A program made the position numbers and the translations under genes. The notes beneath the pieces are model-generated. The model saw only the letters and a program-made list of their open reading frames with translations. It had not been told where the DNA came from and made no database searches. Positions 9,419-34,985 of a DNA stretch of 61,255 bases are shown here, in pieces. This DNA comes from Candidatus Moranbacteria bacterium UBA2206 (GTDB lineage Bacteria > Patescibacteriota > Minisyncoccia > Moranbacterales > UBA2206), in the NCBI GenBank assembly GCA_002328565.1, contig DCUU01000020.1, positions 1 through 61,255 of the forward strand. The letters run 5' to 3'. The first letter of the stretch is position 1, and every line of letters starts with the position of its first letter.

Positions 9419-10186
9419 TTAAATTGTGGCTATCTCCCATAACATTTCAAACCACGCCTTATTCATCGCATAGATGTTTTTATCTTCAATCAGAATGGAA
9501 ATGATATTGGCCCCGTCAATTATCTGATGGGAGATTTTACCGTCGTAAATTTGCACATCAGATTTGAAAGGGAAGTTAGTTTTTTCTAGATATTTGATTT
9601 CAGTAATAGCATCATATCTATCATCGCTAGTCCCAAAAGCCATTTCTGGTTTTTTCCCAACCCGCAGAATTCTTTTTTTCACACCACGCCGAATTCTTTT
9701 TCGTTTGTATTCTGCGTTTATTTCTTTAAACTTCTCTTCTTCGTTTAGAGAATCGGTGTTTATGAAAAGCAGAATTTCAGTTTGAGTTGTGAGTGTATCA
9801 TCCAAAATCTTTTCCATGCCCTCGGCGCCTTCGTAGAATTTTACCCCTGGTCTATTAATGGTGAGATTATAGTTAGAAACCAAGGAGGGGAGCACTTCTT
9901 CAAAAATCTTTTTGTTTTGGCTAATTTCTCTTTCTTTGCTTTCTAATATCTTTTCCAAAGCGCGCGGATGAGTAGCTCGAAAGCGCGCCACTTCTTTGGT
10001 TTTTTCAATTTTTTCCACAAGTTCCAGTGCTAAAAGTTCTTCCATGGCTTTATACACCACTCCGCGAGGCTGATTGATGCTTTTGGCAATGTCTCTGGCT
10101 TTGGCTTCGCCAAACTCAAAAAGAAAGTCCATCACCGCGGATTGGGTTTTAGTCAGGCCGAATTGTTGCAATTGATCCTTAAACAT
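9419..10186 (-). CDS. TrmB-family transcriptional regulator (paralog 2 of 4)
   Basis: N-terminal wHTH FGLTKTQSAVMDFLFEFGEAKARDIAKSINQPRGVVYKAMEELLALELV. The C-terminus (...MLWEIA) resembles the other paralogs. Confidence 0.8.
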   Translation of the reverse strand: MFKDQLQQFGLTKTQSAVMDFLFEFGEAKARDIAKSINQPRGVVYKAMEELLALELVEKIEKTKEVARFRATHPRALEKILESKEREISQNKKIFEEVLPSLVSNYNLTINRPGVKFYEGAEGMEKILDDTLTTQTEILLFINTDSLNEEEKFKEINAEYKRKRIRRGVKKRILRVGKKPEMAFGTSDDRYDAITEIKYLEKTNFPFKSDVQIYDGKISHQIIDGANIISILIEDKNIYAMNKAWFEMLWEIATI

Positions 10187-10196
10187 TTTGTTGACT

Positions 10197-10256
10197 TGTC
10201 ATCCTGAACTTGATTCAGGATCTAATTTGAGATGCTGAAATAAATTTAGCATGACA
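10197..10256. repeat. MITE-like palindromic element, copy A (TGTCATCC...ATGACA family), immediately upstream of the TrmB paralog 2 start
   Basis: tgtcatcctgaacttgattcaggatc...gctgaaataaatttagcatgaca. Terminal inverted repeats tgtcat/atgaca and internal hairpin cctgaa/ttcagg. Confidence 0.8.
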
Positions 10257-10269
10257 AAGGAGAATAATT

Positions 10270-10785
10270 TTATTTAAAACCAATTTTATCTTTTGGCATT
10301 GCATCTTCTTTCATCAGACTAGCAATCATTTGAAAAACTATTTTGAAATTCTTGTCATATTTACTTTCAATCTTTTCCATTTTTTCTTGTAGTTGTTTAT
10401 GTGTGGACAAAATTTCTCGAAGTTTTACGAAAGTTCGCACCACCTGAATGCTGACCGCTACCGCTCGTTTACTTTTCAAAACTGCCGAAAGCATCGCGAC
10501 GCCTTGTTCGGTGAAAACATAAGGGAGATATTTTGAATACTGTCCCATTTCTAAGGTTCCAAATTGGTACCTTAGAATTTTCGCCTCTTTTTCATTTAAT
10601 TGAAACATAAAATCTTCTGGAAAACGATCTAAATTTCTTTTGACAGCTTTGTTTAGCGCTTTTGTTTCTACATTGTAAAGTTCGGCTAAGTCGCGATCGA
10701 ACATTACCTTTTCCCCGCGAATCATATAGATTTTGCCAATTATTCTTTCGTGGGGGATTAATTGTTGGTTTGTGTTTTTTGTCAT
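10270..10785 (-). CDS. ORF6N (KilA-N-related) domain DNA-binding protein
   Basis: IYMIRGEKVMFDRDLAELYNVETKALNKAVKRNLDRFPEDFMFQL is the characteristic ORF6N block. Confidence 0.85.
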   Translation of the reverse strand: MTKNTNQQLIPHERIIGKIYMIRGEKVMFDRDLAELYNVETKALNKAVKRNLDRFPEDFMFQLNEKEAKILRYQFGTLEMGQYSKYLPYVFTEQGVAMLSAVLKSKRAVAVSIQVVRTFVKLREILSTHKQLQEKMEKIESKYDKNFKIVFQMIASLMKEDAMPKDKIGFK

Positions 10786-10817
10786 ATTTTTTGGTTTTTT
10801 ATTGATTTTATACTCTA

Positions 10818-10846
10818 ATTCTAGCAGATTATTTGATATTTGTCAA
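10818..10846 (-). promoter_or_regulatory. Sigma70-type promoter for the ORF6N gene
   Basis: The minus strand reads TTGACA (10841-10846), 17 nt, TAGAAT (10818-10823). Confidence 0.55.
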
Positions 10847-10941
10847 TATAAAAAATGACACTTTTTCAACGAAAATAAGCCAAAATAGTCTTTTATGGTA
10901 GGGATAATGAAGACAAAACAAATAAAATGTATCAAATATTA

Positions 10942-10970
10942 TTGACGAAATGATTAGAAAATGGTATACT
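10942..10970 (+). promoter_or_regulatory. Sigma70-type promoter giving a leader of about 140 nt before the 11116 ORF
   Basis: TTGACG (10942-10947), 17 nt, TATACT (10965-10970). Confidence 0.55.
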
Positions 10971-11115
10971 ACGCAGTTATGATGAAAAATTTGAGGGTTG
11001 TTTAAAAAATAAGTAAACTGTAAAAACCCAGATTCGCAATTAGGCGGATGGTCGATAACTACACTGATGGAAAAATTATCCAGCTCGGCGGATCAGATCG
11101 AGCAAGGAGGAAAAG

Positions 11116-11385
11116 ATGAGAAAAATGACTATTGAAGAAGCGAAAAAAATAGAAGAGTGTTTAATTGCTTATAAATACGGTCAGGGGGGTGCGGATGTAT
11201 TTATGAGAGCATTGATTGGCAGGGGCGAGTATTATTTAGTTAGTCGGCCTGTGCCAGAGGGCCAGAGAATTTATAGATCGGTGGTACAAGGTCATTCCAA
11301 GAAATGGGATGACTGGACTTACCGGTGGGTTTGGGAGGATTCATTAAGAACCCCCACTGGATATGAGAAAGTTATGATAGAGTAA
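11116..11385 (+). CDS. Hypothetical protein (89 aa)
   Basis: Strong RBS aaggaggaaaag before the ATG. I recognise no family. Confidence 0.5.
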   Translation: MRKMTIEEAKKIEECLIAYKYGQGGADVFMRALIGRGEYYLVSRPVPEGQRIYRSVVQGHSKKWDDWTYRWVWEDSLRTPTGYEKVMIE

Positions 11386-11533
11386 AAGTGGAGTTTTTGG
11401 TCTCCTAATTAAAACCAAAACCATTAACGGCGGAAGAATTTGTGAACCACACAAACTTCCGCCCTTATTACGAATCCATAAGGCTGGCTTGTGGATTTGG
11501 AAATAAGGAGAAATAAAAAAAGGAGGTTTTAAG

Positions 11534-11872
11534 ATGATAGAATTTGAGGAATTTAAAAAAACTATAGGCGAGGAAGTAAAAAAAAGAAGACAGGCTCTTG
11601 GATTAACACAAAAAAAACTTGCCGATAGAATTGGTATTTCGCAGACTATGGGCACTGCGATGGAAACAACTAATCCTCCAATAGTACTCAATAACATATG
11701 GAGGTTATGTGAAGCTTTAGGGTGTGACCCGATTGAATTTCTAAATTCAATTGTTGGAAAACATCTTCCGGCTCCGGCTCCAGCTCTAGAGGAAAAAATA
11801 GAAAGGGCTGTTCTTGGAGCCTTAAAGGGGGCATCGAAAGATGTCACGGTGATAATTCTAAAAGTGGAGTGA
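11534..11872 (+). CDS. XRE-family helix-turn-helix transcriptional regulator
   Basis: RRQALGLTQKKLADRIGISQTMGTAMETT...LCEALGCDPIEF is a Cro/C1-type HTH. RBS aaaggagg. Confidence 0.8.
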   Translation: MIEFEEFKKTIGEEVKKRRQALGLTQKKLADRIGISQTMGTAMETTNPPIVLNNIWRLCEALGCDPIEFLNSIVGKHLPAPAPALEEKIERAVLGALKGASKDVTVIILKVE

Positions 11873-11903
11873 AAACTCTCAAAGGAGGTGTGAAAATAAT
11901 TTC

Positions 11904-11931
11904 GGGCAGTCCAACGTGGCTGCCTTTTTTA
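11904..11931 (+). terminator. Intrinsic terminator after the XRE gene
   Basis: ggcag...ctgcc stem followed by tttttt. Confidence 0.6.
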
Positions 11932-11974
11932 TTTCATCTTTTTTGACTATCGTGATAAAATAAAGGAAATATAA

Positions 11975-14236
11975 GTGAAAAATATGTTTAAAATGGACAA
12001 CGCTTTTTCTAAGGCAGGAATGATAGAAAAAAACAAAGTTGAAGGCAAGAAAGATTCGATAGAAAAAGATGAAAAGATTAAAAAAAAGATATTGAAATTT
12101 CTTGAAGAAGAAGGTGTTTTGAGATATGAAAATGAAATTAGTGTTGTGAACATTGATACCCTAAAAACAGCAGAACTTTTTCAAAAAATGAGACAACAAG
12201 GAATTGGAAGAGTTAGAAAAAAAGAGGAAAAATTATCAGGAGGAGCTGGAGCGGTCTATAAGTTTTTACAAGATATGGAAGTTGTTTCCATAGAAGATTT
12301 TGAGGAATCAAAAAATAGTGGAAAAGAAATAAAAACAAAATCATTATTCAATGTTCCTGAGAGCATAGAAGATGCTTTTGATCCGGAATTAATCAGGAAC
12401 AAGGAATACTATCTCAATTTATGGGATACTTATGAAAATAATATTCAATGGGGGCAAGGAGTAGAGGTAAAAAATGGAGAAAAATTAAACATGGAAGAAT
12501 TGCATTTTGCAACAACGCTCTTTCGAGACTTAAAAGCCAAACGTGATGAAAACGGAATATTATTAGTTTATGATGAAAAACAAGATGGATATATAAGACC
12601 CAGCTTTGAATGGTTAAAGAAAAATACAAGTAGGCTTGATAAGGAAGAGGGAAGAGATGAATTTTTGAAAAATAATTGTAGCTATTTATTGGAAAAAGGA
12701 TTAATTAGCCATGCGGATTTTTATCAATTTTCTTTGGGAGAAAGGCTTGGTTATGCTAGACCAACAAAAGAAATTAGCACTGGCTCTCCTTATATAATGT
12801 TAAAAGACGTTCAGTATTATATGGGGAAGGAATTTTTTATTTTTGATGGTGAAAAAATTCCTACAAAAAATATGAAAGTAGTTTTGCTTGATGAGGAGAC
12901 TGGAGGAATTATTTCTCTTGACAACGGCGCAGAAAATTTGAAATACATTTTTAGTTTATTAAATGAAGAAGAAAAAAATCAAAGAGAAAATGAAAATGTT
13001 TCAACGTATGTTGATATTGGTGGGAAAGAGGTTAAGGAGAGAACAAAATTATGGAAAGTAGATGAAAATATTCCTCAGCGAAAAGATGAGACTGACAATG
13101 ATTATGCTGAGAAAATTTCACATTTGAAAGATTTTGGATATGTCGACGATATAACTAATAAGTTTGCGGATAATTGTCATGTAAAAATGTTAAAATTGAG
13201 CTGGCGAGAACAATCTTGGGTTGCTTCTTTAGCTTACGAAATGGATCTCAATGGAAACGGAAAAGATCTAATAGCTTTTACTAGAAAATACAGAGAAGAG
13301 GGGTTGAAGTGTTTCCTTTCTCAGGAATTTGATCAAAATAATGGACAGAAAATTATAGACATTGGAGAAAAAATAGAAACCAAAGAAGCACAAAAAGTTT
13401 TTGCTAAAATTGTCGAGCTTGGGGATTTAGCACAGAAAAAAGATGAAGAATTATCAAAAATTATTTATAAAGACAATCAAAAAGAACTTCCTGCTAGTGT
13501 GCAAACGGAACTTTTGCGAAAAGCGCATAATATCATTTCTCGATTTAGTGATGAGTTGAAAGATGGAGAAAAACCGGATGAGGAAAAAATTGCAAAAATT
13601 TTGAAAGATTTGGAACAAAGCCGAATCGAAATTGATCTCGTAGCTTCGCTTTTGATTGCGGGGAAAAAAGAAGGCGAAGTGCAAAGCCTAGAAGATATAA
13701 AAGGTTTGGAAATTTCTGAAATTAGCGGGAAAGAGGTTTTAGAAAATTCAGAATTGATAGGTAGACTTCGGGAAATGTATCTCGCGAACAATTCTCACAA
13801 ATCAAAAGAAGATTTGGAAAGGCTAATGAATGATTTTGAAAAACATTTGGAGCACGATGCAAAATTCTATTTGGTCTATTTTGATAAAGATGGAAAAAGT
13901 GGAGATAAAAAATTAGAAAACCTAGCGGGTTTTATGCGCTCGTCGAATTTCGATGGGATAAAAAAATTACCGGAGGGCGAAAGATATTTGGGTGCTATGA
14001 ATATTGATCCACTCTTGCAAAAATTCTATTTCGGAGATAATTTTTCCCGAGAGACTAATGAGAGAGAGTTAGTTTCCGGAGCTAAAAAATTAATTGCTCA
14101 TGTGCCAGAAGGTGGTAGAACTTATGAATTGCTTATGAAACAAGGATTTAAAAGAGTTGCTCAGGAAGGGGAATATAAAAATGACGACGGGAGTGTTTTG
14201 GCGAGGAGGCTAAGGGTGGAATTGACTAAAGACTAA
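11975..14236 (+). CDS. Large hypothetical protein (753 aa), family not recognised
   Basis: Long uninterrupted ORF with GTG at 11975 or ATG at 11984. Charged and helical-looking. No motif I can name. Confidence 0.6.
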   Translation: MKNMFKMDNAFSKAGMIEKNKVEGKKDSIEKDEKIKKKILKFLEEEGVLRYENEISVVNIDTLKTAELFQKMRQQGIGRVRKKEEKLSGGAGAVYKFLQDMEVVSIEDFEESKNSGKEIKTKSLFNVPESIEDAFDPELIRNKEYYLNLWDTYENNIQWGQGVEVKNGEKLNMEELHFATTLFRDLKAKRDENGILLVYDEKQDGYIRPSFEWLKKNTSRLDKEEGRDEFLKNNCSYLLEKGLISHADFYQFSLGERLGYARPTKEISTGSPYIMLKDVQYYMGKEFFIFDGEKIPTKNMKVVLLDEETGGIISLDNGAENLKYIFSLLNEEEKNQRENENVSTYVDIGGKEVKERTKLWKVDENIPQRKDETDNDYAEKISHLKDFGYVDDITNKFADNCHVKMLKLSWREQSWVASLAYEMDLNGNGKDLIAFTRKYREEGLKCFLSQEFDQNNGQKIIDIGEKIETKEAQKVFAKIVELGDLAQKKDEELSKIIYKDNQKELPASVQTELLRKAHNIISRFSDELKDGEKPDEEKIAKILKDLEQSRIEIDLVASLLIAGKKEGEVQSLEDIKGLEISEISGKEVLENSELIGRLREMYLANNSHKSKEDLERLMNDFEKHLEHDAKFYLVYFDKDGKSGDKKLENLAGFMRSSNFDGIKKLPEGERYLGAMNIDPLLQKFYFGDNFSRETNERELVSGAKKLIAHVPEGGRTYELLMKQGFKRVAQEGEYKNDDGSVLARRLRVELTKD

Positions 14237-14256
14237 ATTAAAAGGACAATATAGAT

Positions 14257-14829
14257 ATGATTGCAAAACTAACGGGGAAAATTGAATATCTCAAAAGTAA
14301 CTATGCGGTAGTGGATGTGAATAATATTGGCTACAAAGTATATTTGTCAGCTTATACTTTTGGGAAAGTGGCGGGAATACCGGAAGTGAGTTTGTTTATT
14401 CACACCTATGTGCGGGAAGACACTCTGGCACTGTATGGTTTTTTGACGAGCGAAGAATTGGAAATGTTTGAACTTTTGATTTCCATTTCTGGTATCGGTC
14501 CAAAAGCGGGCATGGGAATTCTTTCTATTGCTACGCCCAAAACAATCAAGACTGCTATTCTCAACGAAGACCCATCGATTCTCACAAAAGTTTCCGGCAT
14601 TGGCAAAAAAACCGCCGAGCGAGTTATTTTGGAACTGCGAAACAAAGTAGCGGACATGACTACTGGCGAAAAAGAGGAAGCGACAATTGATTCAGATGCA
14701 ATCGAAGCACTTATCACGATGGGCTACAGCGTCACCGAAGCGCGCGATGCTCTTAAGATTGTTCCGTTGGATGTAAAAGATGTGGGACAGAGAGTGAAGA
14801 TGGCGCTTAGGAATTTGGGGAGGAAATAA
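14257..14829 (+). CDS. ruvA: Holliday junction branch migration complex subunit RuvA
   Basis: MIAKLTGKI...VVDVNNIGYKVY start and HhH motifs LISISGIGPKAG and VSGIGKKTAERVILEL. Confidence 0.95.
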   Translation: MIAKLTGKIEYLKSNYAVVDVNNIGYKVYLSAYTFGKVAGIPEVSLFIHTYVREDTLALYGFLTSEELEMFELLISISGIGPKAGMGILSIATPKTIKTAILNEDPSILTKVSGIGKKTAERVILELRNKVADMTTGEKEEATIDSDAIEALITMGYSVTEARDALKIVPLDVKDVGQRVKMALRNLGRK

Positions 14830-14864
14830 TTCTTACGAATTACTAATCTATTACAAATATACGA

Positions 14865-15962
14865 ATGTACGAAAATTTAGAAAATAAAAAAGACTTTTTG
14901 CAATCTGAGCAGTGGCGGAAATTTCAGGAGGCGGTGGGGCGAAAGACTTTTGAAATTACCTCATCCGCCCTACGGGCACCTTCTCCTTATAAAGGAGAAG
15001 GGGATTTTTATTTTTATGCCGGTATAATTGAGCATAGCTTGCCGATAGTGGGGAAATATTTTTATGTGCCTCGTGGTCCTGTCATTTGTCATCCTGGATT
15101 TATTTCAGGATCCAAAGAAGAGATACTGAAACAAGTTCAGCATGACATGGAAAAATTAATTGATTTAGCGAAAAAAGAAAAGGTGGGGTGGATTCGGATT
15201 GAGCCGGAAAATGAGAAAATTTTAAACTTAATTAAAAATAATACGAAAAATAAAATTACTAAAGCTCCGCATGATATGCAACCGAAGGAAACTCTGATAG
15301 TAGATATTTCAAAAAGCGAAGAAGAACTTTTGGCGGGGATGAAAAGTAAGACACGCTATAATATAAAATTGGCGGAGAAAAAGGGAATAAAAGTTTTTAA
15401 TAATTGTCATCCTGAACTTGTTTCAGGATCTAATTCTGATTTAGAGATACCGAAACAAGTTCGGCATGACAAGGATTTTTATACTGAAGAGTTTTTGAGA
15501 CTGACAAAAGTTATGTCTGAGCGACAAGGGATTAAAACTCACAGCGATGAATATTATCGAAAGATGTTTGAAATTATTCCGGAGAATATAATTAAATTAT
15601 ATGTGGCAGAATATGACGAGAAAATTATCGCAGCTAATATCGTTGTTTTTTACGAAGATACTGCCTATTATTTGCACGGAGCATCGGATGATAAATATAA
15701 AAATTTGATGGCGCCGCATCTCTTGCAATGGCGTCAAATTCAAGACGCACGCGAAGCTGGATGCAAGAAGTATGATTTTTGCGGAGTAAAGGTGAATAAT
15801 AAAAAAGGAAGATCATGGGAGGGAGTGACTAGGTTTAAGCTAGGATTTTCTCCAAACACTGAACCAGTTGAATTCCCTGGGAGTTATGATATTATTATTA
15901 GTCCAGTGAGGTATTGGGGGTATAGAATAATTCAAAAAGTAAAAAGTTTTGTAAGAAGGTAG
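14865..15962 (+). CDS. FemAB-family peptidoglycan peptide-bridge transferase, carrying three in-frame repeat insertions
   Basis: FLQSEQWRKFQ, KSKTRYNIKLAEKKGI and YYLHGASDDKYKNLMAPHLLQWRQIQDAREAGCKKYDFCGV are typical FemAB/FemX blocks. Confidence 0.85.
   Translation: MYENLENKKDFLQSEQWRKFQEAVGRKTFEITSSALRAPSPYKGEGDFYFYAGIIEHSLPIVGKYFYVPRGPVICHPGFISGSKEEILKQVQHDMEKLIDLAKKEKVGWIRIEPENEKILNLIKNNTKNKITKAPHDMQPKETLIVDISKSEEELLAGMKSKTRYNIKLAEKKGIKVFNNCHPELVSGSNSDLEIPKQVRHDKDFYTEEFLRLTKVMSERQGIKTHSDEYYRKMFEIIPENIIKLYVAEYDEKIIAANIVVFYEDTAYYLHGASDDKYKNLMAPHLLQWRQIQDAREAGCKKYDFCGVKVNNKKGRSWEGVTRFKLGFSPNTEPVEFPGSYDIIISPVRYWGYRIIQKVKSFVRR
14979..15001. repeat. Perfect 10-bp-stem palindrome inside the FemAB gene (codes PSPYKGEG)
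   Basis: ccttctcctt ata aaggagaagg. Confidence 0.8.
15087..15147. repeat. MITE-like element copy B, in frame in the FemAB gene (codes CHPGFISGSKEEILKQVQHDM)
   Basis: tgtcatcctggatttatttcaggatcc...ctgaaacaagttcagcatgaca. Confidence 0.85.
15405..15471. repeat. MITE-like element copy C, in frame in the FemAB gene (codes CHPELVSGSNSDLEIPKQVRHDK)
   Basis: tgtcatcctgaacttgtttcaggatct...ccgaaacaagttcggcatgaca. Confidence 0.85.
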
Positions 15963-16116
15963 TGTCCCGCACAAAATTCCAATAAGGATTTATTTAATTT
16001 AATGATTTATGTGCGTGGCCCGTCTAGCGACTAGTTTAGGGATAATTCAAAATTATTAGAGCGAATTTTTGCGGGATACTCATGTTTGTAGTTTCTCGCT
16101 TTGCTCGAAAACAAAC

Positions 16117-17469
16117 ATGGTAAAAAAGCTTATTCCACAATCTATCAAAAACATCTACCATCTTTTCCAAGCTATCTTGGCGAATTTTATGTATGGTTTT
16201 CCTGCCTCATCGGCAGGCAGGCCTTCTAAAAATATAAAAATTATTGGCGTCACTGGAACGAATGGAAAAACTACGACTGTGCAGATGATCACAAAAATTT
16301 TGGAAGAGTCAGGCGCGAGTGTGGCGATGGCGTCGACGATTAATTTCAAATTGGGCGAAAAAGAATGGGTGAATGCCACCAAATTCACAACTCTTTCTAG
16401 TTTTCAAGTACAAAAATTTATTGCGCAGGCAGTGAAAGCTAGTTGCGAATATTTAGTTTTAGAAACTTCCTCACATTCACTGGATCAATTTCGCACTTGG
16501 GGAATAGTTTATGATACAGCAGTGATCACCAACGTCACGCGAGAACATTTAGACTATCACAAAACCATTGAAGAATATCGCCAAGCTAAATTAAAACTTT
16601 TCAAAGGTGCCAAAAATGCAGTAGTGAATTTGGATATGGAAAATCCGGAGGAATTCTTGAAGTATAATAACAAAAATATATTTTTATATTCTTGTCATCC
16701 TGAACTTGTTTCAGGATCTAGATTCCAGATCCTATGCCTACCGGCAGTCAGGAAGTCCGGAATGACATTAATTAAAGCAGAAGATATTAAGTTAGAAATT
16801 AATTTTTCTAACTATAAGCTAGGAGCTATAAGCTATAAGCTGAATATGCCTGGGTTATTTAATATCGAAAATGCGTTGGCGGCGAGTTGTGTTGGATTTG
16901 CGTATGGGATTTCGGATGATATTATAAAAAACGCTTTGGAAAAAATTCAGGGTGTGCTAGGGAGAATGGAAAAAGTGCCAAATAATCGAGGCCTTGAAAT
17001 TATCATTGATTATGCGGTGACGCCGGATAGTTTGGAAAAAGTGTATGAGCTTATTTCAGAATCGTGGACATCGAATGTCCATGATGGACATTCGATGTCC
17101 AAAGGGAGAATTATTTCCGTCTTTGGTTCCTGTGGAGAGCGTGATCGTGGCAAACGTCCGATGATGGGGGAAATTGTTTCGCGTTTTGCGGATTATATAA
17201 TCGTCACTAATGAAGATCCATATAATGAAGATCCGATGCAAATAATAAATGAAGTCGCCAGTGGAATAAAAAATAAAATCGAAAATGAAAACTTTTGGAT
17301 AATCATGGATCGCCGAGAGGCAATCAAAAAGGCCTTGCAACTTGCAAAGCCCGGAGATATTTTTGTCATCACCGGAAAAGGCGCGGAAGAAGTGATGGCG
17401 ATTGGCGCGCAAAGAATTCCTTGGAACGAAAAGAAGGTTATTTTGGAAGAGTTGGAAAAGATTACTTAA
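16117..17469 (+). CDS. murE: UDP-N-acetylmuramoyl-tripeptide synthetase (MurE-type Mur ligase) with four in-frame repeat insertions
   Basis: IIGVTGTNGKTTT P-loop, VLETSSH, NVTREHLDYH and the C-terminal Mur ligase domain (FGSCGERDRGKRPMMG). The ATG at 16117 (MVKKLIP) is preferred over the track start at 16069. Confidence 0.88.
   Translation: MVKKLIPQSIKNIYHLFQAILANFMYGFPASSAGRPSKNIKIIGVTGTNGKTTTVQMITKILEESGASVAMASTINFKLGEKEWVNATKFTTLSSFQVQKFIAQAVKASCEYLVLETSSHSLDQFRTWGIVYDTAVITNVTREHLDYHKTIEEYRQAKLKLFKGAKNAVVNLDMENPEEFLKYNNKNIFLYSCHPELVSGSRFQILCLPAVRKSGMTLIKAEDIKLEINFSNYKLGAISYKLNMPGLFNIENALAASCVGFAYGISDDIIKNALEKIQGVLGRMEKVPNNRGLEIIIDYAVTPDSLEKVYELISESWTSNVHDGHSMSKGRIISVFGSCGERDRGKRPMMGEIVSRFADYIIVTNEDPYNEDPMQIINEVASGIKNKIENENFWIIMDRREAIKKALQLAKPGDIFVITGKGAEEVMAIGAQRIPWNEKKVILEELEKIT
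16201..16221. repeat. CCTGCC-TCATC-GGCAGG hairpin inside murE (codes PASSAG)
   Basis: cctgcctcatcggcaggcagg. Confidence 0.75.
16693..16767. repeat. MITE-like element copy D, in frame in murE (codes CHPELVSGSRFQILCLPAVRKSGMT)
   Basis: tgtcatcctgaacttgtttcaggatctagattccagatcc...ccggaatgaca. Confidence 0.85.
16813..16842. repeat. AAGCT-word repeat inside murE (codes YKLGAISYKL)
   Basis: tataagctaggagctataagctataagctg. Confidence 0.8.
17066..17100. repeat. 35-nt perfect palindrome inside murE (codes WTSNVHDGHSMS)
   Basis: ggacatcgaatgtcc atgat ggacattcgatgtcc. The two 15-mers are exact reverse complements, and each is itself hairpin-capable. Confidence 0.85.
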
Positions 17470-18517
17470 TTTCTTCTATTTTTTGACGCAATGATTGTCC
17501 TGCTTTTTTTCCAATTTTCTTCAATTCAGAAATATACTCGAGGGCTTTCTTCCTTTTCTCTGGATCTTTTGGTGTAACGCCGACAATATCTTCATCAATC
17601 TTATTTTGATGAAAAGATTTTCGAAGAGATGTCAGATCGCTCGATGATCCAAAGTTTTTATTTGTTATAATACCTCCTTTTAATAAATAATCACCGTACC
17701 CCTCATCTTTTTTTTCAGGAATCTCATCTTGTTTTGACTGTCGTGATGTCCAGATTGAAGGATCTATTCCTTCTTTCTTTAATGCATTAAAAATAAATTC
17801 TGCTGTTATCCCGCAAGTACACAATAAGCTAGTAGTATGAGCGGAGGCTAATTCGTCATAAGAAACACCCATTTTTCTTGCTCTTTCATTGTTAATATCA
17901 TCTGTTTGTAACCCAGTGCCCTCAATTAAGGGATAGTTTATTCTCTTACCATCTTCAGAATATTTTCCAATAGCGCCAATGCCATGAGCACGACTTCCTT
18001 CGTCAAACACAATGATGCGTGGATTTATCTCTGTTATTGTATTTGAAATATATTCAGAAATAAATTTATTGGCTTCTTCTTCGTTGATTTTTTCTTTTTT
18101 ATTTCTTCTGTTAGCTGGTTCATATCCATGTCCTATTATTGTTTTTTCCCCAGTCACAAGAGAAGCTCTGGGATTAATTCTGAGAAACTTCGGCAGATTT
18201 TCTTTTGGATAGGCCTGTTGCCATGCCTCTTTCAATACATAGCCAGCAGGAGTTGCACTAGTATCAGTCAAAAAAATATAATCAGGTTTTATATCATCGT
18301 GCCAAGACTCTACTAGTTTTACTGCCCATTCTTCTATTTTTTTAGCTTCATAATCAGAAAATATTTTTTCAGCTCCAGCTTCATAATCTTCTTTTGTTGG
18401 TTCACTATCTTTTTCTTCCTCTGGGGCTCTCTTATTTTTTATTTCTATCGCTTTTTTTCTAATAGCATCAGCTTCATATTCTGCTGAAGATTTAGATTTA
18501 AATGAATAATTTTCCAT
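17462..18517 (-). CDS. Hypothetical protein (351 aa)
   Basis: Long ORF whose 3' end overlaps the murE 3' end convergently by 8 nt. I recognise no family. Confidence 0.55.
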   Translation of the reverse strand: MENYSFKSKSSAEYEADAIRKKAIEIKNKRAPEEEKDSEPTKEDYEAGAEKIFSDYEAKKIEEWAVKLVESWHDDIKPDYIFLTDTSATPAGYVLKEAWQQAYPKENLPKFLRINPRASLVTGEKTIIGHGYEPANRRNKKEKINEEEANKFISEYISNTITEINPRIIVFDEGSRAHGIGAIGKYSEDGKRINYPLIEGTGLQTDDINNERARKMGVSYDELASAHTTSLLCTCGITAEFIFNALKKEGIDPSIWTSRQSKQDEIPEKKDEGYGDYLLKGGIITNKNFGSSSDLTSLRKSFHQNKIDEDIVGVTPKDPEKRKKALEYISELKKIGKKAGQSLRQKIEEIK

Positions 18518-18561
18518 AGGTTTAAATAGTTTAGTCAGATTCTTTTTTTTAAAAATAAACC

Positions 18562-19002
18562 TTATCCAAGAAGTCTTACAAGAATTAACGTAAAGATTAC
18601 GCCGAGAATTCCACCGACAATCACTTCGGAGATTCGGTGGCCCATTCTTTCGTGCAGTCGAGGAAATTGATCTTCGTTTATATTTAACTGTCTAATGAGC
18701 ATATTGAGATAGCGTCCTTGATCGCCCATATACATGCGAAGTCGAGCGGCGTCATCAATCACGATAATAGCGAGAGCCACGGCGACTGTGAAAGCACCAG
18801 AATTTATGCCATCATAATAACCCACGGAAGTGACTAGTGACATAATAAAACCGGTGTGGGCACTCGGCATATGGCCGTGCGTCATGGCATATTGAATGTT
18901 CCAACCATGCTTCATAGAATAAACTATGAATTTTATTATCTGCACTACGCCTCCAACAAACATTGGAATTAGAAAGATGTAGTAGGGTTTTAGGATGTCC
19001 AT
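18562..19002 (-). CDS. Divergent PAP2-family membrane protein (DUF212/YuiD-like)
   Basis: GGVVQIIKFIVYSMKHGW...GHMPSAHTGFIMSLVTSVG...GHRISEVIVGGILG, with four or more TM segments. Confidence 0.7.
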   Translation of the reverse strand: MDILKPYYIFLIPMFVGGVVQIIKFIVYSMKHGWNIQYAMTHGHMPSAHTGFIMSLVTSVGYYDGINSGAFTVAVALAIIVIDDAARLRMYMGDQGRYLNMLIRQLNINEDQFPRLHERMGHRISEVIVGGILGVIFTLILVRLLG

Positions 19003-19109
19003 AAAAATAAATTAATTGTTAACTTGTATAAATTATAGCATAATTTTAGGGTTTTACATAGGAATCAAAAAATGATAGAATTTAGATATAATTAACTAAG
19101 AATAAAAAT

Positions 19110-19661
19110 ATGGGAGTAGGAATAATTTTATTGGGCATTGTCGTTGTTGTCGCAATTGCGATAATTGCGATGTATAACGGGCTAATTACCCTCAAAAACA
19201 GAGTGGATGAAGCTTGGAGTGATATCTCGGTGCAACTCAAAAGACGCTATGATTTGATCCCAAACTTGATTAGCACAGTCAAGGGTTATGCGGCGCATGA
19301 AAAAGAAGTTTTCGAAAAGGTGACACAGGCGAGAACGCAGGCAATGAACGCTGGAACAACAGCGGAAAAAGCCGAGGCGGAAAATATGCTCAGTGGAACT
19401 TTGAAATCTTTGTTTGCCGTTAGTGAAAATTATCCTGAACTCAAAGCCAATCAAAACTTTTTGGAACTTCAAAGAGAGCTTACTGATACTGAAGACAAGA
19501 TTATGGCTTCCAGAAGATTCTACAATGGCAATGTTCGCGACTTCAACACAAAATTACAAGTTTTTCCAACTAATATGATTGCCGGAATGCTAAAATTTAG
19601 CGCTCGTGAATTTTTTGAGATGGATGAAAAAGAGAAGGAAAATGTGAAAGTGGAATTCTAA
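19110..19661 (+). CDS. lemA: LemA-family protein
   Basis: N-terminal TM, then YNGLITLKNRVDEAWSDISVQLKRRYDLIPNL...ENYPELKANQNFLELQRELTDTEDKI...RRFYN. Confidence 0.92.
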   Translation: MGVGIILLGIVVVVAIAIIAMYNGLITLKNRVDEAWSDISVQLKRRYDLIPNLISTVKGYAAHEKEVFEKVTQARTQAMNAGTTAEKAEAENMLSGTLKSLFAVSENYPELKANQNFLELQRELTDTEDKIMASRRFYNGNVRDFNTKLQVFPTNMIAGMLKFSAREFFEMDEKEKENVKVEF

Positions 19662-19733
19662 TCATCATATAACATGCAACATGTAGCATATAACAAAAAT
19701 GTTTAATGTTTAATGTTTCATGCTTCATGCTTC
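19662..19733. repeat. CATG-word inverted repeats in the lemA/htpX spacer
   Basis: ataacatgcaacatgtagcatataac ... atgtttaatgtttaatgtttcatgcttcatgcttcatg. A related word set occurs at 25909-25940. Confidence 0.7.
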
Positions 19734-20627
19734 ATGACTTTATATAATCAAGCGGACAAAAATACTCGTCTTACCTGGCTTTATATCACCGGTTTTTTGG
19801 TGTTTGTAATTGGAGTAGGTTATGTTTTCGCTGGTGCGATGGGCAACAGTACGATACTGTACATCGCAGTTATTTTTTCTGTCGTGATGAGTTTTGCCTC
19901 TTATTGGTGGAGCGACAAAATTGTCCTGACAATGAGTGGAGCAAAAGAGGTAAAGCATAGTGAAAATCCGGAGATTTATCATCTCGTGGAAAATCTTTGC
20001 ATCACGGCGGGACTACCAGTGCCAAAGATATATATAATAGAGGATTCAGCAATGAATGCTTTTGCTACGGGGCGTGATCCAAAGCATGGTGTAATTTGTC
20101 TCACCACAGGAATAATTTCCCGCCTAGAAAAAACGGAACTCGAAGGCGTGATTGCACACGAATTGTCGCACATTGGCAATCGCGATATCTTGCTTTCCAC
20201 GGTGGTTGTAATTTTAGTTGGTTTTGTGACGCTTCTAGCTGATTGGTTTCGTCACTGGGCTTTTTTTGGAGGAAGATCGAGGGATAATGATAGTGGTGGC
20301 GGACAACTTAAAATGGTTCTCGTAATTCTAGCAATCATTCTTTCAATCTTAGCTCCAATCGCATCGGTTCTGATGCAATTGGCAATTTCTCGCAAGCGCG
20401 AATTATTGGCTGATGCTGATGGCGCGCTTCTCACCCGTTATCCGGAAGGCTTGGCAAAAGCTTTGGAAAAAATTTCTCAAGATACCGAACCGCTCGAAGC
20501 CGCTAACCGCGCCACCGCCCATCTTTTCATCGCTAATCCCTTCAAGGGGAAAAAAATGATGAAGATGTTTATGACCCACCCACCAATTGAAGAACGTATA
20601 AAAGCTTTGCGAGGGATGAGTATGTAG
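19734..20627 (+). CDS. htpX: M48-family zinc metalloprotease HtpX
   Basis: HELSHIGNRD zinc motif and TM segments. It is paired with lemA, as is common. The ATG at 19734 is preferred because 19713-19733 lies in the word repeat. Confidence 0.9.
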   Translation: MTLYNQADKNTRLTWLYITGFLVFVIGVGYVFAGAMGNSTILYIAVIFSVVMSFASYWWSDKIVLTMSGAKEVKHSENPEIYHLVENLCITAGLPVPKIYIIEDSAMNAFATGRDPKHGVICLTTGIISRLEKTELEGVIAHELSHIGNRDILLSTVVVILVGFVTLLADWFRHWAFFGGRSRDNDSGGGQLKMVLVILAIILSILAPIASVLMQLAISRKRELLADADGALLTRYPEGLAKALEKISQDTEPLEAANRATAHLFIANPFKGKKMMKMFMTHPPIEERIKALRGMSM

Positions 20628-20648
20628 TAGACTTTAGATAAAAAAATA

Positions 20649-20676
20649 AGGACGAGATAATTCTCGTCCTTTTGTG
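20649..20676. terminator. Bidirectional intrinsic terminator
   Basis: aggacgag ataatt ctcgtcct followed by ttt. Confidence 0.75.
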
Positions 20677-20701
20677 TAAGTTAATGTTGTAGTTTTATTA
20701 A

Positions 20702-21043
20702 TTAGTCCCGTAGTGGATGGTCGTCACCAATAATTTCGGATATTTTTTTAAAAAAATTATCACGAACAGACACATATTGATAAAAGCCATCCTTAAAAAT
20801 ATTACTGTGATAGCCATCGACTAGTGTCAAAGTTATTGCTAAGGCTATATCTTTAGACTCATCACACACCATAGATAAGGAGATTTTTTCAATAATACAA
20901 AAATAATAGCGATCTCCTCCGCCACCTCTACATAAATCATTAGGGATTTTATTTTCCTCACTTTTTAAGAATTCATTCAATCTGTCCAAAGTGTTAATTT
21001 TAATGTAAGGAAAGAAAATTTTTAACATAGCTGATGTTGTCAT
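20702..21043 (-). CDS. Hypothetical protein (113 aa)
   Basis: ORF with RBS-like aaggagaa upstream on the minus strand. No family recognised. Confidence 0.45.
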   Translation of the reverse strand: MTTSAMLKIFFPYIKINTLDRLNEFLKSEENKIPNDLCRGGGGDRYYFCIIEKISLSMVCDESKDIALAITLTLVDGYHSNIFKDGFYQYVSVRDNFFKKISEIIGDDHPLRD

Positions 21044-21151
21044 GACCAGTTCTCCTTAGTGGGTTGTTAAAGTAAGTTATTTAGCGTTGTAAATAATAGG
21101 GGATAGTAGCAAGGCTATTTTAATTTGTCAACAAAAAACCGATGACAAAAC

Positions 21152-21180
21152 TTGACAGCAGTCAAAAGTTGCGCTATAAT
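21152..21180 (+). promoter_or_regulatory. Sigma70-type promoter for TrmB paralog 3; the -35 box sits in a TTGAC-N4-GTCAA palindrome
   Basis: TTGACA (21152-21157), 17 nt, TATAAT (21175-21180). Palindrome cttgacagcagtcaa. Confidence 0.6.
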
Positions 21181-21238
21181 AAGGCTGTAATAAGAAGAAA
21201 AATAACGACTCGTCATTTTTGAACTGACATCAAAAAAA

Positions 21239-21973
21239 ATGGAAAAGGAGCTAAAGCAACTTGGCCTGACTAATAATGAGATAAAAGTCTATAAAACCCT
21301 CTTGGAAGTTGGGGAAGTTACAGTTGGACCGATAATTGAAAGACTAAAAATACATCGTCAGGTCATTTATGACGCCTTAAATGGCCTTATAGAAAAAAAT
21401 ATGGTAATTGGTGTGGTAAAAGGGCGACGTAATCATTATAAAATTTCTAATCCGGATAATATTTTTGACAATATAAAAACCAAAGAGCAAATTGCTAAAA
21501 ATCTCATAAAGGAAATTAACCAAAAACTTGGAGGACAGACAAGTAGACAGGAGATAAAAATTTATGAGGGAGCGCAGGCTTATCGCGAACTTGTTTTGCG
21601 AAATGATGAAAAAATGCCAGCCAATAGTGAAATATATATCTTAGCTTGTTTGGCAGAGGAGCATACTAAGATGTTGGAAGTTGGCGGAGTTCTCGAGAGG
21701 AGTAATAAATTGCGACAAGGTAAAAATATAAAATCTAAATTGTTATTTAGTGAAACATATAGAAAAGAAGCTAAAAATTTAAAAAGAATAAATAGGGAGT
21801 GTAGGTTTTTAAAGCAAGAACATACAACTCCAATTTCAATTCAAATTTGGCATAATTGCGTCACATTAATTTCTTTCGGTAAAGAAATATTTGCTATTCA
21901 AATGGATAGTCAAGATATTCATGATGCTTATCTAGGCTATTTTAAATTGCTTTGGAAAATCGCAAAAAAATAG
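21239..21973 (+). CDS. TrmB-family transcriptional regulator (paralog 3 of 4)
   Basis: LGLTNNEIKVYKTLLEVGEVTVGPIIERLKIHRQVIYDALNGLIEKNMV. C-terminus ...LLWKIAKK. Confidence 0.8.
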   Translation: MEKELKQLGLTNNEIKVYKTLLEVGEVTVGPIIERLKIHRQVIYDALNGLIEKNMVIGVVKGRRNHYKISNPDNIFDNIKTKEQIAKNLIKEINQKLGGQTSRQEIKIYEGAQAYRELVLRNDEKMPANSEIYILACLAEEHTKMLEVGGVLERSNKLRQGKNIKSKLLFSETYRKEAKNLKRINRECRFLKQEHTTPISIQIWHNCVTLISFGKEIFAIQMDSQDIHDAYLGYFKLLWKIAKK

Positions 21974-22066
21974 AAAATATATTGCCAGTTGTGGAATTTA
22001 TAAATCATGCTAAAATAGAAATGAGGGGAAAATAGTTTAAACATATAATAAATTAATAAAAAAAAT

Positions 22067-22462
22067 ATGGAAGAGCAAAAACAAGAAGAGCAACAAGCGC
22101 AACCAGCGCCACAAGAAGCACCAAAGGAGGCACCAAAAGCTAATTCAGCTGATGTGGAAAAAAACAAGCTGATGGCCATTATTGGGTATATCATTCCAAT
22201 TCTTTTCTTTATTCCTCTTTTGAATGAAGAAAGCAAGAAAAGTCCGTTTGCTAAATTTCACGCTAATCAGCAATTAGTGCTTTTAATCTCAGCTATCGCA
22301 GTTAATATTGTTGGAACACTGATTCCTATTCTTGGTTGGTTTATAATCTTGCCTATCGGAAGCATTATACTATTAGTTGTTGCAATTATCGGTATAATCA
22401 ATGCAGCTAAGGGAGAAATGAAAAAACTACCGATTATTGGAGGATTTGAAATTCTAAAATAG
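22067..22462 (+). CDS. DUF4870-family membrane protein
   Basis: EKNKLMAIIGYIIPILFFIPLL...FAKFHANQQLVLL and the TM pattern are typical of DUF4870. Confidence 0.7.
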   Translation: MEEQKQEEQQAQPAPQEAPKEAPKANSADVEKNKLMAIIGYIIPILFFIPLLNEESKKSPFAKFHANQQLVLLISAIAVNIVGTLIPILGWFIILPIGSIILLVVAIIGIINAAKGEMKKLPIIGGFEILK

Positions 22463-22477
22463 TCAGTATTATCTTTA

Positions 22478-22508
22478 AAACAGGCAAATTTAGGTTTGTC
22501 TGTTTTTG
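22478..22508 (+). terminator. Intrinsic terminator
   Basis: acaggcaaa tttagg tttgtctgt followed by tttt. Confidence 0.7.
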
Positions 22509-22550
22509 TTTGAGTTTTAATGATATAATTAGAACATAAAAAATTATTAA

Positions 22551-22637
22551 CTATTTACGAAATTACGAATCAAGCTAAATTACTAATCCTTGCTTGTTTT
22601 AATTCGTACTTTCGTTTAATTCGTACTTTCGTAAAAT
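22551..22637. repeat. TACGAAT/ACTAAT word repeats upstream of pyk
   Basis: tacgaaattacgaatcaagctaaattactaatcc...aattcgtactttcgtttaattcgtactttcgtaaa. The same words occur at 6541-6600, 14830-14864 and 24073-24118. Confidence 0.75.
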
Positions 22638-22638
22638 T

Positions 22639-24072
22639 ATGAAGAGAACTAAAATTGTAGCAACTATTGGACCCTCGACTGGGACTAAGGAAAAATTGAA
22701 AAAATTAATCAAGACAGGAATGAATGTGGCGAGGATAAATTTTTCTCATGGCGATCATAATTCTAATGGCAAGTTGATAAATTATATCAAAGAGCTTCGT
22801 GAGGAGTTGGAATTGCCGATTGGAATTATCGCCGATCTTCAGGGACCAAGAATTAGAACCGTTGTTGAAGAAGAAATAGAAGTTAAGAAAAAAGAAACAA
22901 TTTTTGTTTCGGATGTTTCGGTGGATGAAAAACTGCTGAAAATAGAAGGAAAATTATTCAAGCTTGATTGGCCGAAAATTATTTCTGATATTAAGGTTGG
23001 AAATTATATCTTAGTCGAAGATGGATTGATAAAGATGAAAGTAGTTTCCAAGGAAAAAAAATACTTGAAAGCGGAAGTAATAAGTGGAGGAGTGCTTAAG
23101 AATCATAAGGGTGTCAATATTCCCGATATTAAATTGGAAAGAGGGGCCTTCACAAAAAAGGATGAGGAAGATTTGAAGTTTGCGTTGTCGCAAGATGTTG
23201 ACTACATTGCACTTTCTTTTGTGAGTAATGCTAAGGAGATAATGAACGTGAAAAAGAAAATAGAAAAGATAGTGAAAAATAAGCTGAAGTTGCCTCAGAT
23301 AATTGCCAAAATTGAAAGAAAAGAAGCAATCAAAAATATTGCAGAAATAATTGAAGCATCAGATGCGGTGATGGTAGCTAGAGGGGATCTTGGAATTGAA
23401 ATGGATGAAAATCGGGTAGTGATTTATCAAAAAGAAATTATTGCTAAGTGCCTTCGGTCAGCCGTGCCAGTTATTGTGGCCACGCAAATGCTCAATTCAA
23501 TGATTGAAAATCCTTTGCCAACTCGCGCGGAAGTTTCGGATGTGTCTAACGCGGTAATTGATCATGCTGATGCGGTGATGCTTTCTGGTGAAACGGCTAA
23601 CGGTAAATATCCCGTGCAAGCCGTTAAGGCTATGAGTGACATAATTAGTAACACCGAAAGATCACCTTTTGATGATTTGGAACATGGATTTTTGGGAGAC
23701 AAAAAGAAATCTACTTCGGCGGCAGTGGCTAATTCAGCTCATGAACTTTTGAAAGATACGCGGGCCAAAGCGATTGTGGTGGCTAGTGTGAGTGGTTTTA
23801 CCGCGCAAATGATTTCTCGTCATCGCCCAGAATGTCCAATTTTTGTGATGACTAACAATGAAAAAACACATAATCAATTGAGTTTGGTTTGGGGCGTGCA
23901 GAGTTTTGTTTTGCCAGATTGTGAAACGATTGATGAACTGATTGATATTTCAATTAAGATTCTAAAAACCAAGAAGAAAGTTAATCTCAAAGATAAACTA
24001 GTCATCGTAATGGGTCGTCCGCACGTCACTAAGGAGCATATGAGTTTGGTGAAAGTGGAGGAGGTGGATTAG
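22639..24072 (+). CDS. pyk: Pyruvate kinase
   Basis: MKRTKIVATIGPS, NVARINFSHG, MVARGDLGIE, and ATQMLNSM leading to SGETANGKYP. Confidence 0.96.
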   Translation: MKRTKIVATIGPSTGTKEKLKKLIKTGMNVARINFSHGDHNSNGKLINYIKELREELELPIGIIADLQGPRIRTVVEEEIEVKKKETIFVSDVSVDEKLLKIEGKLFKLDWPKIISDIKVGNYILVEDGLIKMKVVSKEKKYLKAEVISGGVLKNHKGVNIPDIKLERGAFTKKDEEDLKFALSQDVDYIALSFVSNAKEIMNVKKKIEKIVKNKLKLPQIIAKIERKEAIKNIAEIIEASDAVMVARGDLGIEMDENRVVIYQKEIIAKCLRSAVPVIVATQMLNSMIENPLPTRAEVSDVSNAVIDHADAVMLSGETANGKYPVQAVKAMSDIISNTERSPFDDLEHGFLGDKKKSTSAAVANSAHELLKDTRAKAIVVASVSGFTAQMISRHRPECPIFVMTNNEKTHNQLSLVWGVQSFVLPDCETIDELIDISIKILKTKKKVNLKDKLVIVMGRPHVTKEHMSLVKVEEVD

Positions 24073-24130
24073 ATTCTACGAATTACAAATTTGTACGAAT
24101 TTACTAATATACAAATAAAATTATTTTCGA

Positions 24131-24160
24131 AAGAGCTGGCTTCGCGCCAGTTCTTTTTTT
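24131..24160 (+). terminator. Intrinsic terminator of pyk
   Basis: agagctggc ttcgc gccagttct followed by a T-run. Confidence 0.8.
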
Positions 24161-33459: not shown

Positions 33460-33463
33460 AATT

Positions 33464-34981: not shown

Positions 34982-34985
34982 AAAT

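Follow-up and report, generated by a model that had tools for sequence, protein, structure and literature searches.

Dimers of probable CGTC-tagged repetitive extragenic palindromes, some of them in frame within femX and murE, in a Candidatus Moranbacteria genome

What kind of repeat comes to lie in frame inside the cell-wall genes of a bacterium from the Candidate Phyla Radiation (CPR), and are copies of it still being made? The question is raised by a 61,255-nt stretch of DNA from Candidatus Moranbacteria bacterium UBA2206 (DCUU01000020.1; 35.5% G+C), here called the window, for which an original prediction had described six copies of one element resembling a miniature inverted-repeat transposable element (MITE), with 6-nt terminal inverted repeats and an internal CCTGAA hairpin, three of the copies being read in frame within a FemAB-family gene and murE. 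The four copies that carry this hairpin, named A to D below, are in all likelihood dimers of CGTC-tagged repetitive extragenic palindromic (REP) sequences of the CGTC-2 type, which are mobile and occur as in-frame inserts in genes. The elements and their in-frame behaviour belong to a kind that has already been described and do not represent a new kind of element. What is new is the host, a CPR bacterium of the Moranbacteria, together with the density of inserts in the femX and murE orthologues, the evidence of recent copying, and the presence of the same 25-mer across phyla and in viral contigs. It is possible, though on balance doubtful, that CGTC REP dimers are still actively copied in Moranbacteria and are kept as hairpins even inside genes.

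Structure and identity of the repeats

All six predicted elements are present in the window at the predicted coordinates. Copy A (10197-10256; arms at 10197-10224 on the plus strand and 10229-10256 on the minus strand) is an intergenic dimer of the CGTC-2 type, located between the stop of an ORF6N gene (10270, minus strand) and the start of a trmB-like gene (10186, minus strand). Copies B (15087-15147, plus strand) and C (15405-15471, plus strand) lie in frame in femX and would encode CHPGFISGSKEEILKQVQHD (residues 75-94) and CHPELVSGSNSDLEIPKQVRHD (residues 181-202), respectively, and copy D (16693-16767, plus strand) lies in frame in murE and would encode CHPELVSGSRFQILCLPAVRKSGMT (residues 193-217). 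The remaining two elements are intergenic variants. Copy E (50944-51058), 3' of an aminotransferase gene, is a degenerate CGTC-type dimer with longer, interrupted hairpins, and copy F (55951-56080) is a variant dimer in which the right arm (56054-56080) combines a stem of 8 bp with a loop of 4 nt, as in CGTC-1, and the loop of the left arm is expanded. The whole-window count of arms gives four canonical and two variant dimers in 61 kb. The description as six copies of one element was too strong, because the CCTGAA/TTCAGG hairpin is confined to A-D and the loosely related E and F have other, longer hairpins.

The elements end in TGTCAT and ATGACA in all six cases, except that F begins with GGTCAT. 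What had been taken for 6-nt terminal inverted repeats is at each end a hairpin arm of 25-27 nt, and each element is a pair of such arms in inverted orientation, with their tags outermost and 10-16 nt between them. An arm consists of an unpaired (T/C)GTC tag, a stem of 8 bp that opens with an A-T pair followed by T-A, a 5-nt loop, and a short tail starting with C, which may be written as (T/C)GTC + ATCCTGAA + CTTGT + TTCAGGAT + C(T/C)N; the opposite end is an inverted arm, mostly with a different stem (ATGCTGAA, ATGCCGAA). The left arm of F has the tag GGTC, and every other arm of the six elements has TGTC. Seven arms (the pairs of A, B, and C and the left one of D) have 5-nt loops, and the right arm of F has a 4-nt loop; the other four, namely the right arm of D (where a small CLPA-type hairpin is nested within the loop), the two of E, and the left one of F, have expanded or nested loops. 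There are perfect 8-bp stems at 10201-10221, 15409-15429, 16697-16717, and 56057-56076. The tails in the window are CTA, CCA, and CTC, with CCA also common among arms from other genomes and the first C kept in at least 90% of arms. Folded as single-stranded DNA, copy A forms two separate 8-bp hairpins (z = -3.4), and the fold z scores of all six elements range from -2.7 to -6.9 relative to shuffled sequence (E, -4.3; F, -3.6).

The hairpin structure is also apparent in other genomes. Arms from unrelated genomes were gathered by position only, as the first ATGAC 3' of a pattern match, and 48 arms were kept after those with obviously expanded loops had been removed by eye. The 8-bp stem is 91% paired in these arms, compared to 24-50% when the 3' partners are slid, and compensatory changes occur at six of the eight stem pairs (58 double-sided cells versus 20 +/- 3.5 in shuffles); pair 1 is A-U in 42 of the 48 arms and pair 2 is U-A in 45. 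A covariance model built solely from arms of other genomes was then run on the window, where it identified seven arms at E = 5e-7 to 7e-5, namely both arms of A (40.2 and 31.6 bits), B (33.3 and 40.0 bits), and C (40.9 and 39.5 bits) and the left arm of D (40.9 bits). Marginal matches were obtained for the right arm of F (16.8 bits, E = 0.15), the left arm of E (16.5 bits, E = 0.18), and the right arm of D (10.1 bits, E = 5). No further arm was found in the window below E = 0.5, and the predicted list is complete for the A-D family. Judging from the covariance-model scores, A-D appear to constitute one family, with E and F as looser relatives that share the tag and the general plan.

The CGTC-tagged REPs described previously carry CGTC, or often TGTC, as an unpaired tag; their stems are 8-9 bp long and in nearly all cases open with complementary A and T, their loops measure 4-5 nt, and their 3-nt tail has the consensus CCA (PMC3733652). 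They occur mostly as dimers, CGTC-2 heterodimers being common, have intragenic copies in several species, and "apparently lack a dedicated transposase" (PMC3733652); tens to thousands of units are dispersed per genome (Di Nocera, De Gregorio & Rocco 2013, BMC Genomics 14:522). The identification of A-D as CGTC REPs is based on agreement in the tag, stem length, A-T start, and loop, possibly also in the tail, and in the inverted dimers (often heterodimers), the in-frame intragenic copies, and the lack of a transposase. With an 8-bp stem and a 5-nt loop, the geometry of A-D is that of CGTC-2, whereas the right arm of F and an arm in a related genome (L123, see below) are of the CGTC-1 type. There are several differences from the published CGTC-2 REPs: the usual spacer is 20-100 nt compared to 10-16 nt here, the tail is CCA rather than mostly CTA or CTC, and the published survey, which predates most CPR genomes, reports hosts from five phyla, mostly Alphaproteobacteria, whereas the present host is a CPR bacterium. 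The intragenic peptides tabulated in the same work (SFPRKRES, VIPAKAGI, CHSRESGNP, DSRFRGND, and RHPGLDPGS; PMC3733652) are of types that recur in the FemX and MurE orthologues of Moranbacteria. A literature search combining CPR with palindromic or MITE terms returned no paper reporting these repeats in CPR, and a search by sequence string returned nothing relevant.

The original prediction had likened the coding copies to Rickettsia palindromic elements (RPEs). The behaviour does match, with in-frame insertion into unrelated housekeeping genes, including cell-wall genes of R. conorii, at loops that tolerate it, but the relationship is more than an analogy, as both belong to the same published superfamily: R. 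conorii RPE-6 is CGTC-1 and RPE-4 is CGTC-4, and the intragenic hosts in R. conorii include MurB, PBP1C, and AmpG (PMC3733652). Through this published equivalence, which is an indirect link, A-D with their CGTC-2 geometry would be relatives of RPE-4 and RPE-6 and not members of them, being a sub-family with a CCTGAA stem and a different host. The dimer peptides of R. conorii have a tag-outermost layout, as here, and RPE-1 is a longer (~150 bp), unrelated palindrome. The dRS3 repeats of Neisseria, at which filamentous prophages integrate and which bound intergenic mosaic elements, are mostly clustered. They are classified as CGTC-1 in the 2013 survey (PMC3733652).

Two positional observations concern the intergenic elements. 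Copies A and F are located 10 and 8 nt, respectively, upstream of two trmB-like start codons (10186 and 55942, minus strand), and in the related genome L123 a CGTC-1 arm of different sequence (2988-3023) lies 8 nt 5' of the orthologue of the first trmB-like gene; either insertions have recurred at this position or the arms have a role 5' of these genes. In addition, E and F, for which a reading as the two ends of one composite element was set aside, each being a complete dimer by itself, bracket a copper-handling cassette composed of a DsbD_2/HMA/cupredoxin protein (51442-52800), a P-type ATPase (52903-55071), and a trmB-like regulator (55172-55942).

In-frame inserts in femX and murE

The gene that contains copies B and C is femX (14865-15962, plus strand; Pfam FemAB, 7e-40), which encodes a FemAB-family aminoacyl-transferase and contains a third palindromic insert, and copy D lies within murE (16117-17469, plus strand; Pfam Mur_ligase_M and Mur_ligase_C), which encodes a Mur ligase of 450 aa and contains two other palindromic inserts. 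Both genes appear to remain functional and not decayed, since the Pfam domain matches flank the inserts on either side in FemX and MurE, the window MurE retains all columns that are invariant across 40 aligned orthologues, and three independent assemblies of the strain have identical sequence here. Two other contigs with an identical MurE are 99.995-100% identical to the window, and no empty sites that would indicate strain-level polymorphism were found in them. The homologue search returned 2304 FemX homologues, of which the best 120 were used, as for MurE, and MurE structures in the PDB match the window MurE at 1e-54. The names of the closest FemX and MurE homologues likewise point to Candidatus Moranbacteria, a lineage of CPR/Parcubacteria. 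Alignments took in 28 FemX and 120 MurE orthologues.

As predicted, all three coding copies are read in the same frame as CHP(E/G)(L/F)(V/I)SGS..., and the five frames other than this host frame all contain stops; in the intergenic copy A, the CHP frame is itself interrupted by a stop codon. The net inserted lengths of B, C, and D are 60, 66, and 75 nt, or 20, 22, and 25 codons. The left arm is open in two of its three frames and the right arm likewise, with one combination remaining open for any given spacer, and selection would for this reason explain the frame shared by the three copies. Gene-internal copies would be expected to survive only if they add whole codons, are read in the sole stop-free frame, and fall in a tolerant surface loop, and B, C, and D have all three properties. 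It is likely that they are translated as loops of 20-25 residues (CHPELVSGS...VRHD) in FemX and MurE.

The structural models are consistent with such loops. In the AlphaFold2 models of FemX and MurE (mean predicted local distance difference test score, pLDDT, of 80 and 81, respectively), pLDDT falls below 50 at FemX residues 36-45, 77-79 (copy B), and 182-200 (copy C) and at MurE residues 29-33, 200-204 (copy D), and 321-326, and these segments together cover all six in-frame inserts of the two proteins. The low-confidence loop of copy D sits between strands 187-192 and 216-220 of the MurE model. For annotation and structure prediction, this means that low-complexity loops of this sort are to be expected in CPR proteins.

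The other three inserts are in-frame palindromes that the original prediction had missed. A palindromic insert of a different family is located in femX at 14955-15005 (plus strand; SALRAPSPYKGEGD), with a 10-bp stem at 14979-15001 and a fold z of -5.7; it falls in the low-pLDDT residues 36-45 and is missing from the orthologues P0006 and P0012-P0017. In murE, a small hairpin insert at 16201-16221 (plus strand; CCTGCCTCATCGGCAGGCAGG), formed by CCTGCC...GGCAGG and encoding PASSAGR, falls in residues 29-33 and is missing from many orthologues. The third is a perfect 37-nt palindrome in murE at 17065-17101 (plus strand), which has a 17-bp stem and a 3-nt loop (-19.7 kcal/mol, z = -7.3), encodes WTSNVHDGHSMS, and corresponds to an 11-residue insertion relative to PDB 4bub, within residues 321-326. 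Among the closest 22 orthologues, only the window protein and P0126 have this palindrome. It belongs to a separate repeat family and is located in the loop near residue 319 where relatives have the CHPELVSGS dimer or other repeats.

Comparison of orthologues, which had been proposed as a check, revealed forms with and without each insert. Occupancy of the B, C, and D sites varies among orthologues of 65-85% identity. Copy B is found in P0001, P0002, P0005, P0008, P0011, and P0012 and is missing in P0003, P0004, P0006, and P0013-P0017, and copy D is common to P0121-P0125, decayed in P0138, and missing from the other orthologues. The clearest case lies near MurE residue 319, where P0134, P0127, and P0133 read SQSKKE followed directly by DSKII, and P0135 reads SQSKNT-CHPELVSGSNSDLEMPKQVRHD-SCKII, with exactly 22 extra codons and intact flanking residues. 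Among the best 120 homologues of each protein, the frame-1 dimer peptide is present in 16 FemX and at least seven MurE sequences, and lengths spread by up to ~100 residues; the insertion-sized length differences among aligned orthologues consist of hairpin-repeat-like peptides in a few variable loops. The same FemX and MurE loops hold other repeat types in relatives (AGIQ...LDSGSKAGMT, CHSRENGNP...DSRLRGND, LPLEKGE...SKGGE, and others), and since different relatives carry different repeat types in them, these loops appear to be tolerant hot spots for insertion.

With orthologues that have and lack the inserts, whole codons in predicted loops, and a copy at a non-homologous site in a relative (described below), the RPE-like in-frame insertion proposed for this CPR genome is well supported. 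In-frame palindromic "decoration" of core enzymes, best known in Rickettsia, is also common in a CPR lineage. In ~110 kb of Moranbacteria sequence, seven of eight canonical dimers are intragenic. The emphasis on cell-wall genes holds for femX and murE as hosts, but is not specific, as PolA of a relative carries a palindromic insert and large proteins of other taxa that, by our reading of their sequences, look like a methylase and an AddB-type nuclease each contain two CHPELVSGS units.

Copying, maintenance, and mobilisation

The best evidence of copying comes from the MurE-319 insert of the relative (contig L122, 2881-2947), which is identical at 66 of 67 positions to copy C in femX of the window, its 13-nt spacer included. 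In the same relative, the femX copy orthologous to C differs from C at five of the 13 spacer positions. Because a near-identical unit, spacer included, occupies a non-homologous site in a relative, the C-type unit probably moves or is copied between sites. If dimers are indeed still being actively copied, repeat insertion would regularly contribute to variation in the loops of CPR core enzymes. In the Logan assemblies, a contig of the same strain (L184, which aligns to 15404-24202) begins at 15404, a single base short of copy C. Assemblies are broken at these repeats, and since such a contig start is what a repeat with copies elsewhere in the genome produces, its position at the edge of copy C hints at further copies.

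There are several alternative explanations. The one that survives best, although it is unlikely, is that the elements are immobile relics, inserted long ago and inherited vertically, whose similarity is due to hairpin constraint or gene conversion. This would agree with the fact that the femX site-4 and murE site-193 copies are common to several species, that the three same-strain assemblies lack polymorphism, and that the family has no known transposase and may, as its authors suggested, be heading to extinction (PMC3733652). However, relics would not be expected to include a copy at a non-homologous site that matches even in the unconstrained spacer when orthologous copies differ at 36% of spacer positions, nor to be sporadic among close relatives at MurE-319, nor to share a 25-mer with very distant phyla and viral contigs. 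The relic explanation is contradicted for the C-type unit and may still hold for B and D.

Conservation of the arms raises a second alternative. In the orthologous femX site-4 copy of four related genomes, the arms diverge by 4-6% (9% at third codon positions), compared to 17-21% (37% at third positions) for the flanking femX coding sequence and 36% for the spacer, so that the arms are ~4x more conserved than the synonymous sites of the host gene. Because the arms are so much more conserved than synonymous sites and the spacer drifts freely, the hairpin arms, and not the peptide, appear to be maintained, either by selection or by conversion from other copies. It is somewhat less probable than the relic explanation that this conservation reflects a host function, such as an intergenic hairpin that terminates transcription or stabilises mRNA, or an intragenic structure involved in regulation or recombination, as might also be suggested by the location of A and F 8-10 nt 5' of trmB-like starts, by the other CGTC arm at the same spot in a relative, and by the published argument that many REPs act as RNA elements (PMC3733652). 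Conversion from other copies explains the arm conservation equally well, however, and occupancy is patchy among close relatives; the different repeat families in the same loops point to tolerance and not function, and a scan of copy A alone found no terminator- or promoter-like site.

The original MITE label fits poorly, and a third possibility, which appears highly improbable, is that the elements are classical MITEs, deletion derivatives of insertion sequences (IS) moved as double-stranded DNA by a DDE transposase that reads terminal inverted repeats. The inverted ends, the length of 60-130 nt, and the several copies at different sites in related genomes are features shared with such elements, and bacterial MITEs with in-frame copies (ERIC, Correia, Coxiella QMITE, and Anabaena MITEs) have small inverted repeats and can form in-frame fusions (PMC10969869). 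By the definition given there, however, MITEs are IS-derived and make target-site duplications, whereas none were found here: in 45 dimers, direct repeats at the junctions are 0-1 nt, which is at chance level, and the insertion flanks are merely A/T-rich, without a target consensus. Furthermore, compensatory changes in the arms would not be maintained by sequence-specific recognition of double strands, some arms occur alone or in head-to-tail arrays, the 1.5 Mb of fetched loci yielded no IS with such ends, and the published survey found no associated transposase. Finally, it is scarcely credible that the coding copies are removed after transcription or translation in the manner of introns or inteins, despite the strong hairpins that they can form. 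If they were removed, there would be no selection for whole codons open only in the host frame (intergenic copy A has a stop in that frame). In addition, 20-25 residues are far below intein size, no Rfam family, intron or ribozyme included, matched the whole window at gathering thresholds or positions 10100-17500 at E <= 1, the inserts stay open across orthologues of 68-85% identity, and R. conorii proteins carrying RPE-1, a longer and different element, are expressed in vivo (PMC3733652).

The lack of target-site duplication, the compensatory hairpin changes, and the existence of solo arms, insertions nested in loops, and one-strand arrays are what would be expected if CGTC REPs were recognised as folded single strands, in the manner of REP/RAYT and IS200/IS605 systems and not of a DDE-type MITE. 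The elements would move as single-stranded hairpins and would be cut at or beside the tag by an enzyme supplied in trans, for which an HUH/Y1-type nuclease is the most likely class. To our knowledge, no enzyme mobilising CGTC elements has been identified in the literature. Like the present elements, the GTAG REPs and REPINs associated with RAYT (a Y1 HUH protein) carry an unpaired tag 5' of the hairpin, occur as inverted doublets ~60-130 nt long, show compensatory changes in the stem, and do not duplicate the target. Their tag is GTAG/GTGG compared to YGTC here, however, and REPIN-RAYT pairs are lineage-specific whereas CGTC arms are identical across phyla; no RAYT gene was found flanked by these arms, and RAYT genes are never flanked by CGTC units in the published survey (PMC3733652). 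RAYT was considered as the mobiliser and rejected, as a motif search and tblastn with E. coli RayT and a Moranbacteria Y1 protein across the window and the fetched loci (1.5 Mb) found nothing beside the arms. A homologue search with E. coli RayT listed enterobacterial proteins only and is uninformative for CPR.

It is also important to note several points that weigh against mobile, translated CGTC REP dimers as the explanation. At the B, C, and D sites the surrounding loop residues differ among orthologues as well, so that these are not simply empty orthologues plus an insert, and either the events are old or the loops are hypervariable. The arm-versus-flank comparison consists of six non-independent pairs from four related genomes. 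No transposase was found in the window or beside the arms in 120 loci from other genomes, and two Y1_Tnp genes met by chance in CPR are each flanked by their own, non-CGTC hairpins. We infer the mobilisation step, as we do translation, the latter from open frames and conservation. The element boundaries are uncertain by 1-2 nt, because D measures 75 nt from TGTCAT to ATGACA and B and C measure 3n+1 in the same way, and the census covers 61 kb of the genome.

The first of these Y1 genes, on a syntenic Moraniibacteriota contig (L125, 4594-5262; GCA_049303905.1), encodes a RAYT-like Y1_Tnp protein of 222 aa. The gene sits between trmB and fpg, and the corresponding interval of the window is just a 126-nt spacer separating polA from fpg. 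Both its flanks and its interior carry TCCTAAAGC-N3-GCTTTAGGA hairpins, a type that was not found in the window. The second (L034, 3726-4385) has GTGCACC-TCCAA-GGTGCAC hairpins on its flanks. These CPR genes and their hairpins look like REP/RAYT pairs that are separate from the CGTC elements.

CPR genomes are tiny, with roughly 1 Mb and about 1000 genes. Because of this small size, and because no dedicated transposase is known for the family, CPR would narrow the search for the CGTC mobilisation machinery if the copying is confirmed. A host that combines a small genome with apparently recent copying offers a good opportunity to look for the enzyme behind a 25-mer that spans Sphingomonads to CPR and viral contigs.

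Occurrence across phyla and in viral contigs

The host had been regarded as unrelated to those of known palindromic elements; it is indeed unusual but not unique, as the same 25-mer is found in many phyla. An exact-pattern scan for GTCATCCTG-N7-TTCAGGATC, with one genome per species, yielded at least 120 loci. By record title, the CPR hosts include Gracilibacteria, Saccharibacteria, Nomurabacteria, and Falkowbacteria. Sphingomonas, Novosphingobium, other Alphaproteobacteria, and Gammaproteobacteria are also among the hosts, as are flavobacterial and sphingobacterial genera (Roseivirga, Salegentibacter, and Pedobacter), Gastranaerophilales, Treponema, Elusimicrobiota, Sulfurovaceae, and a Rickettsiales metagenome-assembled genome. 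By our own arithmetic, ~17 matches would be expected by chance for 18 fixed bases in 1.2e12 positions. The matches across phyla are nevertheless real, since their loop is non-random (mostly AACTTGT or AATTTAT), 65 of the 135 arms in other genomes are accompanied within 260 nt by an inverted partner that bears a hairpin (median element, 89 nt), and 207 canonical arms were observed compared to none in the shuffled control. A protein-level search was less productive: a 30-residue peptide query against 1.84 billion representatives gave 12 matches at E <= 0.001, a small number that reflects the shortness of the query.

The organisation of the arms varies among these loci. Solo arms, head-to-tail or one-strand arrays, and hairpins nested in arm loops all occur, and the Novosphingobium loci L019 and L078 contain homodimers of the same 25-mer, which fits the CGTC-2 homodimers published for N. 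aromaticivorans (PMC3733652). In 34 of the 45 canonical dimers from loci L001-L120, either T precedes GTC and A follows GAC, or C precedes GTC and G follows GAC. The GTCAT...ATGAC core has a length of 2 modulo 3 in 24 of the 45 dimers, where one-third would be expected. These dimers are mostly intergenic, and their copies cannot be counted as independent. When the single additional base observed at clean insertions is included, such a core amounts to a whole number of codons.

The same 25-mer is present in 57 viral contigs (IMG/VR), and viral contigs could be a vehicle carrying it across phyla. At the viral loci L144, L147, and L163, several contigs have up to seven units, all on one strand, in which different GTCAT-hairpin units are arranged head-to-tail ~10-15 nt apart and interleaved with C-rich/G-rich hairpins. 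These one-strand arrays differ from the dimers and may have a bearing on strand-specific insertion or on spread between phyla.

Two further features of the window are unrelated to the repeats. A type I restriction-modification system is located at 32884-42012, and an open reading frame with helix-turn-helix and LAGLIDADG-like domains (28622-29665) overlaps the start of tRNA-Ser (29643-29730), the only tRNA gene in the window.

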